From Candidatus Aenigmatarchaeota archaeon (GTDB lineage Archaea; Aenigmatarchaeota; Aenigmatarchaeia; PWEA01; JACQIF01), in NCBI GenBank assembly GCA_016432325.1, contig CP066684.1, positions 352,001-416,000 on the forward strand: a DNA stretch of 64,000 bases. Reading direction: 5' to 3'. Below the pieces are notes generated by a model. It saw nothing but the letters and a program-made list of their open reading frames with translations. It was not told the DNA's origin and searched no databases. Within the stretch, counting starts at the first letter, position 1, and each line of letters begins with the position of its first letter. Position numbers and translations under genes: made by a program. Of the stretch, positions 17,963 through 41,978 are shown in pieces.

Positions 17963-18025
17963 CCGTTCACCACCGCTTTGTGCACATCCGCAGGATTTAA
18001 ATGGTTACTGCCCCCAAGGGCGGTA

Positions 18026-18071
18026 TTTGCGAACCCTCGGTTCGCAAACTTACGAACCGCTGTTCGTAAGA
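18026..18071. repeat. Double-hairpin palindromic element (copy 1)
   Basis: TTTGCGAACC-CTC-GGTTCGCAAA followed by CTTACGAAC-CGCT-GTTCGTAAG. Confidence 0.7.
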
Positions 18072-31336: not shown

Positions 31337-31900
31337 ATGGTAGGACGCATGTGGTGGAAGGTAAAGGCCTCTCTGATGGAACCTTCAAAGATGTTCAATA
31401 CGGTCTCCAAGGAAAGGGGCCTCGGCGAGCCCGTGAAATATCTGGCTGTCGTGTCTCTGGTCTCTTCGTTTCTCGCATCCGTGCTCGCCTTTCCCGGCGA
31501 CGTCGCGATGATATCATTGGTCTTCGCGGCGTTCTACGCGATGACCGTCGCGGGTTCGTTTTTTGTCGCGCTACTGACGCACGCGTGCTCGATGCTCCTC
31601 GGAGGCAAGGGAACGTACGAAGCCACGTACAAAGCCACGGCCTACGCATATACGCCGAGCGCGCTGTTCGGGTGGATACCCGTCGCCGGTTTCCTTGCCC
31701 ACGCGTACGGTTTGTACGTGTATGCCAAAGGGATATCGCGCCTTCACAAGGTCACGATGGGAAAGGCTGTTGCGATAGTCGTAGTTCCCCTGGTTCTGGT
31801 ATACATAGTATTCGTCGTGTTCCTCGCCGTTCTCCTCCTGGCTTACGCGCCTTACCTCAATGCCGGCGGGCTCCAGCCCGGATTCACCGGCTTGGTGTAG
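31337..31900 (+). CDS. YIP1 family membrane protein
   Basis: EPSKMF, LGGKGTY..T...AY..TP, GI. Confidence 0.8.
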   Translation: MVGRMWWKVKASLMEPSKMFNTVSKERGLGEPVKYLAVVSLVSSFLASVLAFPGDVAMISLVFAAFYAMTVAGSFFVALLTHACSMLLGGKGTYEATYKATAYAYTPSALFGWIPVAGFLAHAYGLYVYAKGISRLHKVTMGKAVAIVVVPLVLVYIVFVVFLAVLLLAYAPYLNAGGLQPGFTGLV

Positions 31901-32231
31901 GCGACTGCTGTTCTGTCATGTAAGACCACACAGGCGGCTGTTCGCTTTTCCTCTTCTCCAGAATTGACATGATCCCCGAGACGAGCGTTATGAGACCAAC
32001 CAAAGCTATGACGATTCCTGCGGCGCGTATCGTTCCTGCCGACCCCTGTATGCCTTGCAGTATCGGAACAACTTCTGGCGCGAACTCGGTCGCTCGCGGT
32101 ATTGCGACAGGAGCCTGCGTCTCGACGGCGCCTGCGACGCTGAAAAGTCCGACTCCGATGACAATCAGGAGAATCCCTATCAGAACAAGCGCCACATATC
32201 GAAGCAGTTCCGCGTCGAACTTGAGGGGCAT
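31884..32231 (-). CDS. Hypothetical two-TM protein
   Basis: Two hydrophobic segments. Confidence 0.65.
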   Translation of the reverse strand: MPLKFDAELLRYVALVLIGILLIVIGVGLFSVAGAVETQAPVAIPRATEFAPEVVPILQGIQGSAGTIRAAGIVIALVGLITLVSGIMSILEKRKSEQPPVWSYMTEQQSPTPSR

Positions 32232-32337
32232 GGATATACGTGCCCGTTGTTGCCTTTAAAGCTTCTGCTTTAGGCTTCCCTCCGCGGTCGCAAAGCCTTT
32301 AAATACCTTACCTTCGTTCCTAGACTACCAATGAACA

Positions 32338-32425
32338 ATGATGTGCGTCTTAACGCGCTGAAGGAGGCGTTTGAAACTGCGGTTTCGCGCCTCCCGGTTC
32401 GTATTAACGCACTGAAGGAGGTGTT
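32338..32425 (+). promoter_or_regulatory. rpl7ae leader: kink-turn-like motif, duplicated RBS and anti-RBS hairpin
   Basis: ATGATGT-GCGT-ctta-ACGC-G-CTGA; 26-nt direct repeat 32346-32371 / 32400-32425. Confidence 0.6.
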
Positions 32426-32428
32426 CGT

Positions 32429-32842
32429 ATGGCTGAAGATTTGAGTAAGATTTCCGAACAGAATGTTCGGAATACTTCGAAAGAGGACCTTTCGAAGAAA
32501 GCGCTTGAAGCGGTCGAACTTGCAAGGAGCACCGGTTCCCTCAGAAGGGGAACGAATGAAGTTACAAAGGCGGTAGAACGCGGACAAGCAGAACTGGTCG
32601 TTATAGCAAAAGACACGGATCCGCCTGAAGTGGTCATGCACTTGCCGCCGCTCTGCGAGGAGAAGAACATTCCGTACGTTCACGTGCCTAACAAGGAAGA
32701 GCTCGGACGCGCTTCTGGGATAGAAGTCAAGTGCGCCGCTATCGCAATAGCCAAGGCAGGCGAAGCGAAGAAACTGATAGACGAAATAAGAAAGGCGAAT
32801 GGCATGGAGAGCAAATCGCCTAAGGAAAAAAAGAAAGAGTAA
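32429..32842 (+). CDS. rpl7ae: Ribosomal protein L7Ae (eL8), with 16-aa N-terminal insertion
   Basis: [36 protein letters not shown]. Confidence 0.95.
32451..32498. repeat. Double-hairpin palindromic element inserted in frame in rpl7ae (copy 2)
   Basis: 48 nt, bounded by AAGA repeats; homologous to 41928-41978. Confidence 0.75.
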
Positions 32843-32852
32843 GGTGATTTGA

Positions 32853-33056
32853 ATCCCAGTCGATGCCGTTCCGGCCGAAGTCGTTCAGTTGCTCGGACGC
32901 AGCGGCGTCAAGGGAGTCTTCAAGGTTCGGGCGAAGGTATTGGAAGGACCGGACAAGGGAAAGATTCTCCTGCGCAACGTCATGGGCCCCATACGCAAGG
33001 GCGACATACTGATGCTTCGCGAGACTGAGATGGAGAGCGCCGGCGGGTTCGGTTAA
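32853..33056 (+). CDS. rps28e: 30S ribosomal protein S28e (probable ATC start)
   Basis: Manual translation [17 protein letters not shown]...[32 protein letters not shown]; rpl7ae-rps28e-rpl24e order. Confidence 0.92.
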
Positions 33057-33065
33057 GGCGATTTT

Positions 33066-33248
33066 ATGGACTGCACATTCTGCGGCGAAACAATGCAACG
33101 GGGAAAGGGAAAGATTGTCGTCAAGAAGACCGGCGAAACGTCCGCATACTGCTCTTCAAAATGCGAGCACAACGCGCTTCTGGGCCGCAGCGCAAGAAAG
33201 ATTCAGTGGACGCGCGTGTCGCGCGTCGCCAGAGGCAAGGAGAAGTAA
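33066..33248 (+). CDS. rpl24e: 50S ribosomal protein L24e
   Basis: CTFCG...GKG...YCSSKC...R..RKIQWT. Confidence 0.95.
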   Translation: MDCTFCGETMQRGKGKIVVKKTGETSAYCSSKCEHNALLGRSARKIQWTRVSRVARGKEK

Positions 33249-34751
33249 TCAAGACACTCTTCTGACCAACGGCGTTGGAATGCGCTGCGGGACTTCGAGC
33301 GTTAGCGCACCAGACGCATCCGTCTTCTCGATGAATTTGTGTGTTCGCCTGCCCATGTCATCGATTCCTGTCAGCATCCATTCATTTTCCGGTTCAACTA
33401 TGGGATCCATCGGTTGGTCCGAGTGTCTGTGGAGCAGCGAGTACTCGTCCATCGTCAGCATGCGAACGCGGTCGTCTTCGATGCTCATTCTCCACGCCAC
33501 GTTTCTCCATCCCGGCGCGACCTTGCCGATGGTCACTATCGCCTCGGCCCCGCTGCCGTAGAATCCCAGTCCCACGTATTTGCCTTCTAGGCGCTCTCCG
33601 TGAATCGCGGCTTGCTTGAACATGGAAGCGAGGGCGATGGGCTGAGACGCCGTATAAGCGTTTCCTGTGGACCGCGACCATACGACCGAGTCCTCAAAAA
33701 CGCTGTCCATGTAGTTCCTGAACGGCTTGACCTGCCTGAGCTTCTTCATATGATCGCTCATCGCCTTGTCAAAAGCCTTCACAGAAGAGAACGACTCCAA
33801 AAGCGGTTCCTTCCCTATTTCCGCTTCTATCTCTTCGCCTTCGGCCGTGCCGCGGATGTCGTGGAGGAACCATCTCGCCATTCCCTTGCGTCCCATGTCA
33901 GGGAACGGTATGTGCAGAGCCGCCTTTCTCATTACGTCTTTCATCGGTTGGTTTTTGCCGACAATTCCCTTCCTTCTCGCAATTGTGCGCGCGGCGTCAG
34001 CGGCGTCGCGCATTGTATCCTGATAAACGTCTATTGACAACTGGCTGTCGACGAGAGGCATCTCCGCGTGGGATTCGAAACTCGTCGCGCCTCCCGGACT
34101 CCTGACGGCCATCTTGGTGGGCTTCCAGAAATCGTATGCGTCCCTCGAACTGTAGCCGCGCACTTCCGGGTCGAGCACGAGCAGTCTCGGATCTTGCTTT
34201 ATCCGTATGGCGACTCCGCCGAACCCGCCTGTTATCTCTCCTGCGCTGCCGAGAGGATATTTGCCATGGTCGACGGCCACTACGATGGCCTCTCTCCCGC
34301 TGACTCCCGGAGACGGATCCGCGAGTATCCAGTCCGCGCAGTCCAGAATGGCCGCGCCTGCGGCGTTGCACGCGAACTTGTACTCCATGGTATGCCAATG
34401 GTTCGTCCTGCTGGAACCAAGGTTCTGTCCAAGCATTCCCTTTACGTCTGTGGTGAACGGTTTGGCGTTATCGTAAGAACTCTCGGTGGCGCCGTACAGC
34501 CTGCCGATTTGCTCGGGCTGTATGTCGTTCTGAGCCATCAGCCGATAGACCGCTGTCGCGCCCACCGTCGCGATCGTTTGGCCTCCATCGGGAACTGCCG
34601 CATGCTGCACTCCGAGATGACGCAATTTCCCTTCGAACTCTTCGGCAGAAAGCTTTCCGCGTCTCGCCTCGATAAACTCCTCGCCCAAAAGGTCCAAACG
34701 CGTGGCTGGTACGTAGACGTAGATATCGTCGATACCGACAGACCTTGACAA
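33249..34751 (-). CDS. mvaS: HMG-CoA synthase (bacterial/haloarchaeal MvaS type)
   Basis: VGIDD, ATES..DNAKP, KFAC (catalytic Cys), HIPF, GNAYTAS, YGSG; TTG start after a purine-rich RBS. Confidence 0.85.
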   Translation of the reverse strand: MSRSVGIDDIYVYVPATRLDLLGEEFIEARRGKLSAEEFEGKLRHLGVQHAAVPDGGQTIATVGATAVYRLMAQNDIQPEQIGRLYGATESSYDNAKPFTTDVKGMLGQNLGSSRTNHWHTMEYKFACNAAGAAILDCADWILADPSPGVSGREAIVVAVDHGKYPLGSAGEITGGFGGVAIRIKQDPRLLVLDPEVRGYSSRDAYDFWKPTKMAVRSPGGATSFESHAEMPLVDSQLSIDVYQDTMRDAADAARTIARRKGIVGKNQPMKDVMRKAALHIPFPDMGRKGMARWFLHDIRGTAEGEEIEAEIGKEPLLESFSSVKAFDKAMSDHMKKLRQVKPFRNYMDSVFEDSVVWSRSTGNAYTASQPIALASMFKQAAIHGERLEGKYVGLGFYGSGAEAIVTIGKVAPGWRNVAWRMSIEDDRVRMLTMDEYSLLHRHSDQPMDPIVEPENEWMLTGIDDMGRRTHKFIEKTDASGALTLEVPQRIPTPLVRRVS

Positions 34752-34946
34752 GCAGCTCCCTCGAAAGGACTCCCGATTAGGCGTGAACGCGATATATACG
34801 CGGCTTCGGCCATTGACGAACGCGACGTCGCTTGGTGCTAGAGGGCCGTATAGCCGTCCGTTGGGCACGAAAACGGGCCCATAGGACCTTTCTTGAACAC
34901 GATGCGTTTTTAAGCATGCGCTCCCACCAAGAAATCGGGTATCCTT

Positions 34947-36671
34947 ATGCCAATCCGCCAACCCATCGTATCAGTACTTGGCCACGTCGACCATGGAAAG
35001 ACAAGCCTGCTGGACCGCATTCGCACATCGTCCGTTGCAGCGAAGGAAGCCGGCGGCATCACGCAGCACATCGGCGCCACTGAGGTGCCGCTCTCCACGA
35101 TAAAAGAGATTTGCGCGTCGCTGCTCAGGGAACAGCAGATTAAGATTCCGGGCCTCTTGTTCATCGACACGCCGGGACACGAAGCGTTCACGACGCTGCG
35201 TCGCCGGGGCGGTTCCATCGCCGATCTGGCCGTTCTGGTCGTCGACGTAACAGAAGGCTTCCAGCCGCAGACCATCGAATCGCTGACGTTCCTGCGCGAG
35301 TTCCGCGTGCCGTTCATCGTAGCCGCAAACAAGATAGACAAAGTCCGGGGTTGGGTTCGCCACGCAGGCACGTTCGCGGATTCATACAAGAAACAGAACA
35401 AGGAGACGCGCGAACTGCTCGACAACAAGATATACGAGCTGATGGGGCAGCTGAGCGAGCACGGCTTCGTGGCCGACCGCTACGACCGCATCTCGGACTT
35501 CAGGTCAACCGTCATTATCGTGCCTGTATGCGCGGCGAATGGCGAAGGCGTCCCGGAATTGATGGCGATGCTTATCGGTCTCGCGCAGCAATTTTTGACG
35601 CAAAAGCTCGAAATAAAGGGCGACATAGGCGCCGGTTCTGTCTTGGAGATAAAGGAGGTCAAAGGCCTCGGAACGACGATAGATGTGATACTTTATGACG
35701 GCGTCGCGCGCAAGGGCGACTTCCTGGTCATTGGAGGAGAGACGCCGATAGTGACGACGGTCAAAGGCATATTCAAACCGCGGCCGCTCGCCGAGATGCG
35801 CGTTGAGAGGCAGTTTGCTCCAGTCGATGAAATCATCGCGGCGGCCGGCAGCAAAATGGTCGCGCCGAATCTTGAGGGAGTCATACCGGGCTCGCCCATA
35901 CGCGTCGTTCCGCACAAGAGCGACGTGGATGCGGCTGTGCGCGAACTCAAGCGTGAGGTCGAAACGGTGACGTTCGAGAGCAGCAACGACGGCGTGCTCG
36001 TCAAGGCGGACACTCTCGGCGCTCTTGAAGCGATGATAAAGATTATCACATCCAAGGGAATTGCGATAAGGAAGGCCCGTATAGGCCCCGTATCGCGCAC
36101 GGATGTGATGGAGCAGCGCGGCGTGGCCGAACCGTACAACGTGGTAATCTTCGCGTTCAACGTTCCTGTCGCGCCGGAAGCCGAGGCGCTCAGGGAGAGC
36201 GTCCATATCTTCGCCGGCAACGTGATTTACAGGCTCATCGAGGACTACGTCGCGTGGACGCACACCAGAAAGGAGGAGCTCAAGCTTGCGCGCCTTGAAG
36301 GAGTGGTGCGCCCAGGGAAGATAAGGCTCCTGCCCGGGATGGTCTTCCACGCGGCCAAACCCGCCATAGTCGGCGTTGAAGTTCTCGGGGGTCTGATAAA
36401 ACCGGGATACTCATTAGTGAAGGAAGGACGCATCGTGGGCCGTTTGTTGCAGGTGCAACACGAAGGCGCGAACGTTCAGGAGGCAAAGACCGGCGACCGT
36501 GTCGCCGTATCGATAGAGGGAGCCACCGTAGGCCGCGGTTTGGAAGAACGCGACGTTCTATACACTCTGCAGAGCAAGGAGAACGTCAAGAAGCTCGAAG
36601 AGCTTAAAGACCTGCTCACGCGCGACGAGATTGACGTGCTGGAAGAGATAAAGGGGCTCATGGGCGGCTAG
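34947..36671 (+). CDS. infB: Translation initiation factor aIF5B (IF-2)
   Basis: GHVDHGKT, GGITQHIGA, DTPGHE, NKID. Confidence 0.96.
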   Translation: MPIRQPIVSVLGHVDHGKTSLLDRIRTSSVAAKEAGGITQHIGATEVPLSTIKEICASLLREQQIKIPGLLFIDTPGHEAFTTLRRRGGSIADLAVLVVDVTEGFQPQTIESLTFLREFRVPFIVAANKIDKVRGWVRHAGTFADSYKKQNKETRELLDNKIYELMGQLSEHGFVADRYDRISDFRSTVIIVPVCAANGEGVPELMAMLIGLAQQFLTQKLEIKGDIGAGSVLEIKEVKGLGTTIDVILYDGVARKGDFLVIGGETPIVTTVKGIFKPRPLAEMRVERQFAPVDEIIAAAGSKMVAPNLEGVIPGSPIRVVPHKSDVDAAVRELKREVETVTFESSNDGVLVKADTLGALEAMIKIITSKGIAIRKARIGPVSRTDVMEQRGVAEPYNVVIFAFNVPVAPEAEALRESVHIFAGNVIYRLIEDYVAWTHTRKEELKLARLEGVVRPGKIRLLPGMVFHAAKPAIVGVEVLGGLIKPGYSLVKEGRIVGRLLQVQHEGANVQEAKTGDRVAVSIEGATVGRGLEERDVLYTLQSKENVKKLEELKDLLTRDEIDVLEEIKGLMGG

Positions 36672-36782
36672 GCTGTCCGGGACTCGGCCGCGAAGCCTAT
36701 AAATCATTTCGTTCTCCATTCAGTGCATGGACGCCGGGAAACCATTGGTTTCAATCGTCCATTGAGTAGACGGTGAAGTTCA

Positions 36783-37391
36783 ATGGACGTACTTGACGCT
36801 ATCCAGAAAAGGCGCTCTGTCACGGAGTTCCAGGAAAAGAAGGTGGAAATGGAGAAGGTAGGAGTCCTTCTGGAAGCGATACGATGGGCTCCTTCTGCCG
36901 GCAACAGGCAGCCATGGGAAGTCGTCGTTATCGATGACCGGAAAACCATAGAGGATCTCGCGGATATCGCCCACAACCAACATTGGTTAAAGAAGGCGCC
37001 TCTGGTCATGGTGGTCTGCATCAACCACAAGCTGGCCGAAGGGACCTTCGGTGTCCGCGGAAAGAACCTTTACGCCATCCAGGCCACGGCCACGGCCGCC
37101 GAGAATGCGATGCTCACGGCGACCGAACTGGGACTGGGAACGTGCTGGATTGACGTCTACGATGAAGAGAAGGCGTCACGGCTTCTGGCCTGTCCCAAGC
37201 ACACTGTGCCTGTGATTGCGTTGGCCGTCGGATATCCGCTGGCTGTCCCAAAGCCTCCTCCCCGCTATGAGATAGCGTCCTTCTCCTACTACAACGGCCA
37301 CGGCAAGCTGCTCGAGTTCGAGTGGAAGGGCATTGCAGAGCACCTGAAAGAGTTCAAGGAGAGATTGCTGAAGAGCCTTGAGAAGTACTGA
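36783..37391 (+). CDS. Nitroreductase family protein
   Basis: KRRSV, APSAGNRQPW, GLGTCW, VGYP. Confidence 0.9.
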   Translation: MDVLDAIQKRRSVTEFQEKKVEMEKVGVLLEAIRWAPSAGNRQPWEVVVIDDRKTIEDLADIAHNQHWLKKAPLVMVVCINHKLAEGTFGVRGKNLYAIQATATAAENAMLTATELGLGTCWIDVYDEEKASRLLACPKHTVPVIALAVGYPLAVPKPPPRYEIASFSYYNGHGKLLEFEWKGIAEHLKEFKERLLKSLEKY

Positions 37392-41704: not shown

Positions 41705-41927
41705 TCTATGTTTCCCTCACAGAGTTCGTGAACTCATAAATTTGCATACGTGCGGCTACCCCACAGATTGTTAATGTGAAGAGCCTCTTAAATAACCAAA
41801 AATCTGCCGGGAAACCTGTCCGATATCTTTTTATACTCGGATTGCAACGCATATAATTCTCAAACGCTTCGCGCAAGCGAGGAGAAAAAAAGGAAATGTC
41901 AGAAGAAGGCAATTCCACAGCGGAAGA

Positions 41928-41978
41928 TTTTCGAACATCCTCGAGTGTTCGAAATACTTCGAACCGCCGGTTCGAAGA
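41928..41978. repeat. Double-hairpin palindromic element (copy 3)
   Basis: 51 nt bounded by AAGA repeats; TTTCGAACA/TGTTCGAAA and CTTCGAACC/GGTTCGAAG. Confidence 0.75.

Follow-up and report, generated by a model that had tools for sequence, protein, structure and literature searches.

The rpl7ae gene of this archaeon (L7Ae/eL8; coding sequence at 32429-32842 on the plus strand of the window, i.e. of the whole 64,000-nt stretch of DNA that was analysed) carries a 48-nt in-frame insert that belongs, over its full length, to this genus's dispersed family of twin-hairpin repeats. It is probably an old insertion that is translated, resembles Rickettsia palindromic elements (RPEs) and in part now serves as the start of helix 1 of the protein, its hairpins being preserved at the level of the nucleotides. 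On this reading, a copy of a short DNA repeat with two hairpins, which is abundant in this Aenigmatarchaeota-like DPANN genus, would have been inserted at an AAGA between codons 7 and 8 of rpl7ae. With a length of 48 nt, and from a family in which stop codons are almost lacking in every frame, this copy would have left the reading frame intact. The insert would then be transcribed and translated. The original residues 1-7 and the first eleven insert residues would form a floppy N-terminal tail, and the last five insert codons, which comprise the loop and the 3' arm of the second hairpin, would now provide the acidic-acidic-Leu start of helix alpha-1 in place of the one severed by the insertion.

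New here are the occurrence of such an insert in L7Ae and in uL5, an ortholog that carries it with compensatory changes, and the recoding of a helix start. Selfish DNA within genes that encode proteins, known mainly from Rickettsia, is extended to a DPANN archaeon and to the core translation proteins L7Ae, uL5 and CysRS.

Structure of the insert in the rpl7ae gene

The rpl7ae product has 137 amino acid residues and matches Pfam PF01248. Its L7Ae body (residues 18-121) is aligned to solved archaeal L7Ae PDB chains with E 5e-41, and its homologues in public records are labelled Aenigmarchaeota or Aenigmatarchaeota. The gene is single-copy in this genome (874,869 bp in a single contig, 56% G+C, with 100 N): searching the genome with its own product gave only one strong match (E 8e-84). 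The N-terminus consists of M-A, EDLSK, 16 extra residues and then the conserved L7Ae body. A Shine-Dalgarno-like GGAGGTG lies at 32417-32423 on the plus strand, 5 nt upstream of the ATG. This arrangement is also found in relatives, and it shows that the start codon lies upstream of the insert.

The ancestral EDLSK codons occupy 32435-32449 (plus strand) and are orthologous to the DDLSK codons of the congener. The insert (32450-32497, plus strand, 16 codons) follows directly after codon 7. The motif AAGA is found at its left junction (32447-32450) and again at 32495-32498, so the placement of the junction can slide by 4 nt. Hairpin 1 (32452-32472) has a stem of 9 bp and a loop of 3 nt; hairpin 2 (32475-32497) has a stem of 9 bp and a loop of 5 nt. 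The two are separated by a TA linker at 32473-32474, and both lie on the plus strand. The initial annotation, made from the DNA alone, had described an in-frame palindromic insertion of 48 nt in rpl7ae, and the two perfect 9-bp hairpins bear this out. The RNA fold of the insert reaches -22 kcal/mol (z -3.85), and none of 200 shuffled sequences folds as well. All six frames are open through the insert.

The insert ends with a second set of EDLSK codons (32483-32497, plus strand), aligned with the start of L7Ae helix alpha-1. It had also been claimed that these re-encode the flanking residues with other codons, which is correct: 7 of the 15 bases differ between the two sets, including an AGT/TCG switch at Ser, and 8 are shared. 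Four groundwater runs, all of one study, yielded contigs in which the insert is unchanged and an empty-site variant is missing. These contigs hide rare variants, and this assembly may derive from the same study, so that they do not count as independent of it. Since a diverged relative from another run carries the insert as well, it is not an assembly artefact.

The twin-hairpin repeat family

This genome contains 545 short perfect hairpins with stems of at least 7 bp, versus 61-183 in Markov simulations. One class of hairpins has stems of the form YTT...AAR, mostly with a TTCGAA core, and occurs in pairs or triplets. It gives 136 raw matches at 80 loci, versus 8-22 matches in the simulations. 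A covariance model (R1) was built from 18 twin copies, the rpl7ae copy being left out. The rpl7ae insert is matched by R1 over its full length (model positions 1-46) with 46.9 bits and E 3.9e-9, or E 4e-8 genome-wide, and the rpl7ae ortholog of the diverged relative scores 39-40 bits. There are 57 R1 matches in this genome (both strands, about 36 loci), 45 in the 73% complete genome of the congener (G001, the same as L052) and 0-9 in each of 39 other relatives. The strict triple-TTCGAA pattern was found in the genus only. Weaker R1 matches (3-9 per genome, E 1e-3 to 7e-7) are present in four genomes of a neighbouring family, which suggests that twin hairpins of this kind may predate the genus.

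The family unit is 40-50 nt in size and consists of two adjacent perfect hairpins, as does the rpl7ae insert. The sequence of the arms varies among the copies, and perfect pairing is kept in nearly all of them. The outer arms are inverted copies of each other only where both hairpins share the core TTCGAAC. The unit is poor in stop codons, each of the six frames being open in 13-19 of 20 copies, so that copies with a length divisible by three survive inside genes. According to a rough home-made gene model, about one third of the loci lie inside predicted genes and the others are intergenic. No clear bias of the copies toward gene starts or stops was seen with these rough calls, 11 of 24 tandem intergenic copies being nearer to a start.

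Two further members lie in the window on the plus strand, at 41927-41978 (55.8 bits to R1; intergenic) and at 18025-18071 (44.3 bits). The likeness of the insert to the intergenic segment 41928-41978, as stated by the initial annotation, is confirmed by the same double hairpin in both and by an 18-nt core of the insert found exactly at 41946-41963, for which 0.04 matches are expected by chance.

Four coding copies share the frame and the strand: G000:C1:10279, 191296 and 522064 and the window copy at 32450. They belong to L7Ae, CysRS and two other genes. Their peptides are alike and hydrophilic, with I-S/F at the start, T-S-K/N in the middle and L/S-K at the end; the other frames are open as well. 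Same-frame copies other than that of rpl7ae end in RLK, PLK or RSK. A twin-hairpin copy of 48 nt, in frame, also follows codon 12 of the uL5 gene (G000:C1:69948-69995); the congener lacks it, as do four relatives that are more distant.

In the genome as a whole, TTCGAA is over-represented 2.4-fold, and CGCGCG and GCGCGC about 3-fold. A second, distinct family of double hairpins is also found genome-wide. It has the frame GTGYA-CG[hairpin]CG-GCATGY-CG[hairpin]CG-TRCAC, in which the arms freely co-vary, with examples at G000:C1:529506-529553, 467541-467585 and 851744-851787.

Empty sites and mobility

The insertion site is empty in the congener and in two other close relatives (contigs L053 and L054), the gap in all three being exactly 48 nt. 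The comparison of L7Ae N-termini among relatives, which the initial annotation had suggested, shows the 48 nt to be an insertion. In the congener, the ATG and two codons are followed by the DDLSK codons and then by the conserved body without a gap. Removal of the insert therefore gives an N-terminus of the type seen in the congener. Each of the 30 relatives that were read has an empty site, with L7Ae similarity beginning near residue 17-19 of the present protein. The congener DDLSK codons share 13 of 15 bases with the first EDLSK copy and 8 of 15 with the copy in the insert; hence, the first is ancestral and the second belongs to the repeat. The Leu codon of EDL drifts among insert-free relatives and gives no signal of copy age beyond this comparison.

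The reverse situation was also observed. A copy of the congener at G001:C77:190-241 corresponds to an empty orthologous site at G000:C1:123413-123433. Similarly, the diverged relative has an intergenic twin-hairpin copy at L051:6780-6828, between the genes of aIF5B and SepF, and the corresponding spacer of this genome (window 36671-36783) holds none. The AAGA pair flanks the rpl7ae copy, its ortholog in L051, one other coding copy and the intergenic copy (41924-41927 and 41975-41978) and is not found at the remaining copies. No target duplication consistent across the family was seen. Searches of this genome for a Y1 transposase or TnpB (PF01797, PF07282, PF01385) gave no match, and the controls responded. 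The interpretation of the insert as a coding-tolerant mobile palindrome is therefore supported by the family membership, the empty orthologous sites and the presence or absence of copies in both directions between the congeners, with "mobile" understood as mobile without a known engine.

The diverged carrier and the maintenance of the hairpins

A relative, P0002, represented by Logan contig L051, has the same 16 codons at the same place in rpl7ae. This genome, L051 and the congener are about equally distant from one another, with 76-77% identity in a comparison of five proteins (about 515 residues). On the best reading of these sequences, the insertion is older than the separation of at least two lineages. 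Between L051 and this genome, 5 of the 21 nt before the insert differ, 9 of the first 25 nt of the insert, none of the 23 nt of hairpin 2 and 7 of the 21 nt after the insert. In hairpin 1 of L051 all nine perfect pairs are kept; the outermost T-A and the innermost A-T pairs have both become C-G, and the loop and the linker differ. Among conserved residues, the codon is unchanged at 11 of 12 within the insert and at 40 of 89 in the rest of the gene (Fisher p = 0.002). With two known carriers, the covariation and the codon statistics both refer to one sequence pair. The only relative that shares the 16 residues thus keeps both palindromes, one of them through compensatory changes, which is the opposite of the case named by the initial annotation as speaking against it, i.e. 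relatives with the 16 residues but without the palindromes. Further carriers were sought by the exact sequence of hairpin 2 among metagenome and genome contigs, with 0 matches; the search of metagenome contigs with back-translated residues 1-50 gave 63 L7Ae loci, none of which matched residues 1-10.

The tree of L7Ae alone did not resolve the branching of the closest lineages. The best tree of four proteins joins L051 with the insert-free L053 (support 80/90), and a clade of both carriers is not rejected by the same data (p-AU 0.255). The grouping of L051 with L053, in the best tree and by gene order, would require a precise loss or a second gain. The history could possibly comprise one gain, or one gain and a precise loss between the AAGA repeats. 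As to the gene order, this genome, the congener and L054 have a minus-strand HMG-CoA synthase gene after L24e (window 33249-34961). At this place a plus-strand gene with faint or weak HMG-CoA synthase matches lies in L051 (3410-4945) and L053 (4070-4501), and tblastn with the HMG-CoA synthase protein of this genome gave no match to that gene.

The co-varying arms of hairpin 1 and the frozen codons of hairpin 2 form the pattern expected under maintenance of secondary structure. In hairpin 1 the arms may co-vary because the protein is unconstrained there. In hairpin 2 the codons and the pairing would constrain each other, so that nothing changes. The maintenance could arise from selection on the structure of the mRNA or DNA, or from correction of the palindrome by template switching.

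Under the first of these, the twin hairpin, which lies 21 nt inside the coding sequence, would by now serve rpl7ae as a functional element at the mRNA or DNA level, whatever its origin, and would be conserved for that reason. Such a host-selected cis element might tune initiation, elongation or mRNA stability beside the k-turn-like leader. This is tentatively considered as an addition compatible with the preferred reading of an old, translated and partly co-opted insertion. It would be consistent with compensatory changes and synonymous sites that stayed frozen while the proteins diverged by about 24%, with the box C/D-like and repeated Shine-Dalgarno-containing motifs of the adjoining leader, and with the documented self-regulation of L7Ae through a leader k-turn (PMC5539422, PMC6298567). 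However, three close relatives do without the insert, other copies of the family come and go, the loop of hairpin 1 is not conserved, the family has no positional bias toward starts or stops, and the hairpins themselves lack k-turn or k-loop features. A bolder proposal combines a structured element that the host maintains, by compensatory changes and coupled to the k-turn-like leader, within the coding sequence for an essential ribosomal protein that binds RNA, with a genus in which a hairpin-repeat system that spreads or is regenerated without a transposase can write new residues into essential proteins; in this combined form it is doubtful.

It is unlikely that the hairpins persist by mutation only, one arm of the quasi-palindrome being repeatedly recopied from the other by template switching, with apparently compensatory changes arising in a single step and selection playing no part. 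Template switching during replication is documented as creating and maintaining perfect stems (PMC8794818). It would account for nearly all copies having perfect stems with differing arms, which is unlike the ordinary decay of transposon copies. Nevertheless, the unchanged 5-nt loop and the 0 of 23 divergence of hairpin 2 are left unexplained by it.

Translation of the insert and the start of helix 1

The EDLSK of the insert aligns with residues 13-17 of a Thermococcus L7Ae chain, a QELAE-type start of helix 1. The solved L7Ae chains align from residue 18 of this protein, which is their helix-1 start. In the AF2 model, helix 1 comprises residues 18-35, and residues 1-16 have pLDDT below 50. 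Leu21 is invariant in 13 homologs. In L051 the ancestral EDLSK has decayed to DDSSK, and the invariant Leu is encoded inside the insert only, which argues for translation of the insert. The reading frame is open, the frame and length are kept in both carriers, and an orthologous ATG with its Shine-Dalgarno sequence stands upstream of the insert. The frame common to the four coding copies, and the presence of such inserts in uL5 and CysRS, speak for translation as well. Judging from the sequences and the structural model, the insert is most likely translated and not cut out.

The second EDLSK would then be a set of repeat-derived codons that now supply the start of helix 1, as suggested by one locus in two lineages. 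Its Ser and Lys come from the arm of the repeat, whose end is TCGAAG or TTGAAG in the majority of copies, and E-D-L is particular to the rpl7ae copy. The EDLSK match could therefore be partly a matter of luck.

The other part of the initial interpretation, according to which the insert might be a micro-intron, was not supported. Removal of the 48 nt by the archaeal splicing endonuclease would restore the ancestral N-terminus; the product would be exactly of the congener type, and the insert is strongly structured. This is nonetheless very improbable. Scanning both junctions for a bulge-helix-bulge (4-bp central helix, two 3-nt bulges, flanking helix) revealed none that removes 48 nt. The only 4-bp candidate with a flanking helix in this genome removes 58 nt, L051 has none, and nothing is common to the carriers. 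Furthermore, excision in L051 would place Ser at the position of the invariant Leu, and both carriers have kept the frame and length.

Translational bypass, in which ribosomes would take off at AAG 32447-32449, land at AAG 32495-32497 and skip the hairpins, is hardly credible. Matching Lys codons are indeed located 48 nt apart, with a stable hairpin (from 32452) right after the first, and Lys codons also flank two other same-frame copies. However, the codon after the take-off site is ATT and not a stop, and all six frames can be read through the gap, in contrast to the bypass elements described in PMC8211752. GAG and AAG flank one of the same-frame copies, and in L051 bypass, like splicing, would give Ser at the invariant Leu position. 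Local duplication of the EDLSK codons with palindromes arising de novo, for which the five-residue repeat flanking the extra stretch might speak, was rejected as practically negligible in view of only 8 of 15 bases shared by the EDLSK copies, the full-length R1 match and the exact 18-mer at another locus.

Comparison with known repeat systems

The closest parallel to the translated and partly co-opted insertion is provided by the RPEs. As summarized in PMC10969869 and PMC2229807 (after Ogata et al. 2000, 2002), these are elements of 100-150 bp with one long stem, the RPE in gmk is shown to be translated, and some RPE insertions are common to several species. Like RPEs, the present family consists of palindromic repeats dispersed over a small, reduced genome. 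They are found both between genes and in frame, with open reading, in conserved essential genes. Unlike RPEs, the unit is 40-50 nt (three times shorter) and has two short perfect hairpins, and the family occurs in an archaeon. It is unrelated to RPEs in sequence and gave no match in Rfam; moreover, here the stems are kept by compensatory change, and part of the insert appears to replace the native start of a helix. The family works like RPEs and, differing in size, sequence and host range, is not a member of them.

REP/BIME sequences (RAYT/Y1) and hairpin elements derived from IS200/IS605 are likewise short, often tandem and conserved in structure over sequence, without classical terminal repeats or target duplications. 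They differ from the present family in that REPs are extragenic, whereas here about one third of the loci lie in predicted genes by the rough calls, and no Y1 or TnpB was detected in this genome. An archaeal precedent within open reading frames is reportedly given by the palindromic repeats with coding potential described by Suyama, Lathe and Bork in 2005 in Methanocaldococcus jannaschii, a paper cited by PMC2229807 and PMC2996958. That repeat is said to be a longer unit and comes from a different phylum; the two are set side by side by description only.

The MITEs of bacteria and archaea (PMC10969869) are also small and non-autonomous, vary in presence between close relatives and occasionally form in-frame fusions. 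Unlike them, the present family has no parent IS found, its target duplication is inconsistent across the copies, and its size is far below the typical one. T4 gene 60 and the mitochondrial byps (PMC8211752) share with the rpl7ae insert the features of a structured insert of about 50 nt in a coding sequence with matching flanking codons, some of them being mobile. In the rpl7ae insert, by contrast, the frame is open with no stop after the take-off site, and the evidence favours reading through.

Two features of the rpl7ae copy are unusual. An inserted copy keeps its hairpins by compensatory changes across diverged lineages, and residues encoded by the repeat seem to take over a conserved helix start while the original ones decay. 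The locus can thus serve as a compact natural case of repeat insertions turning into protein sequence, and it draws attention to a repeat family without a recognizable mobilizing enzyme.

The rpl7ae leader

L7Ae is known to regulate its own mRNA via a k-turn in the leader (PMC5539422, PMC6298567). The leader of the present gene looks like that autoregulatory k-turn leader; the Rfam scan of 31800-33300 with E up to 1 gave no match. Within the leader (window 32338-32424), there is a box C-like ATGATGT at 32338-32344, and CTGA motifs occur at 32358 and 32412. An 18-nt direct repeat (32350-32367 and 32404-32421, 17 of 18 positions identical) ends in the Shine-Dalgarno sequence, and a GGAGGCG/CGCCTCC hairpin is located between its two copies. 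In L051, L053 and L054, a G+C-rich hairpin occupies the same place in the leader and is flanked by TGA and GAAGGAGG.
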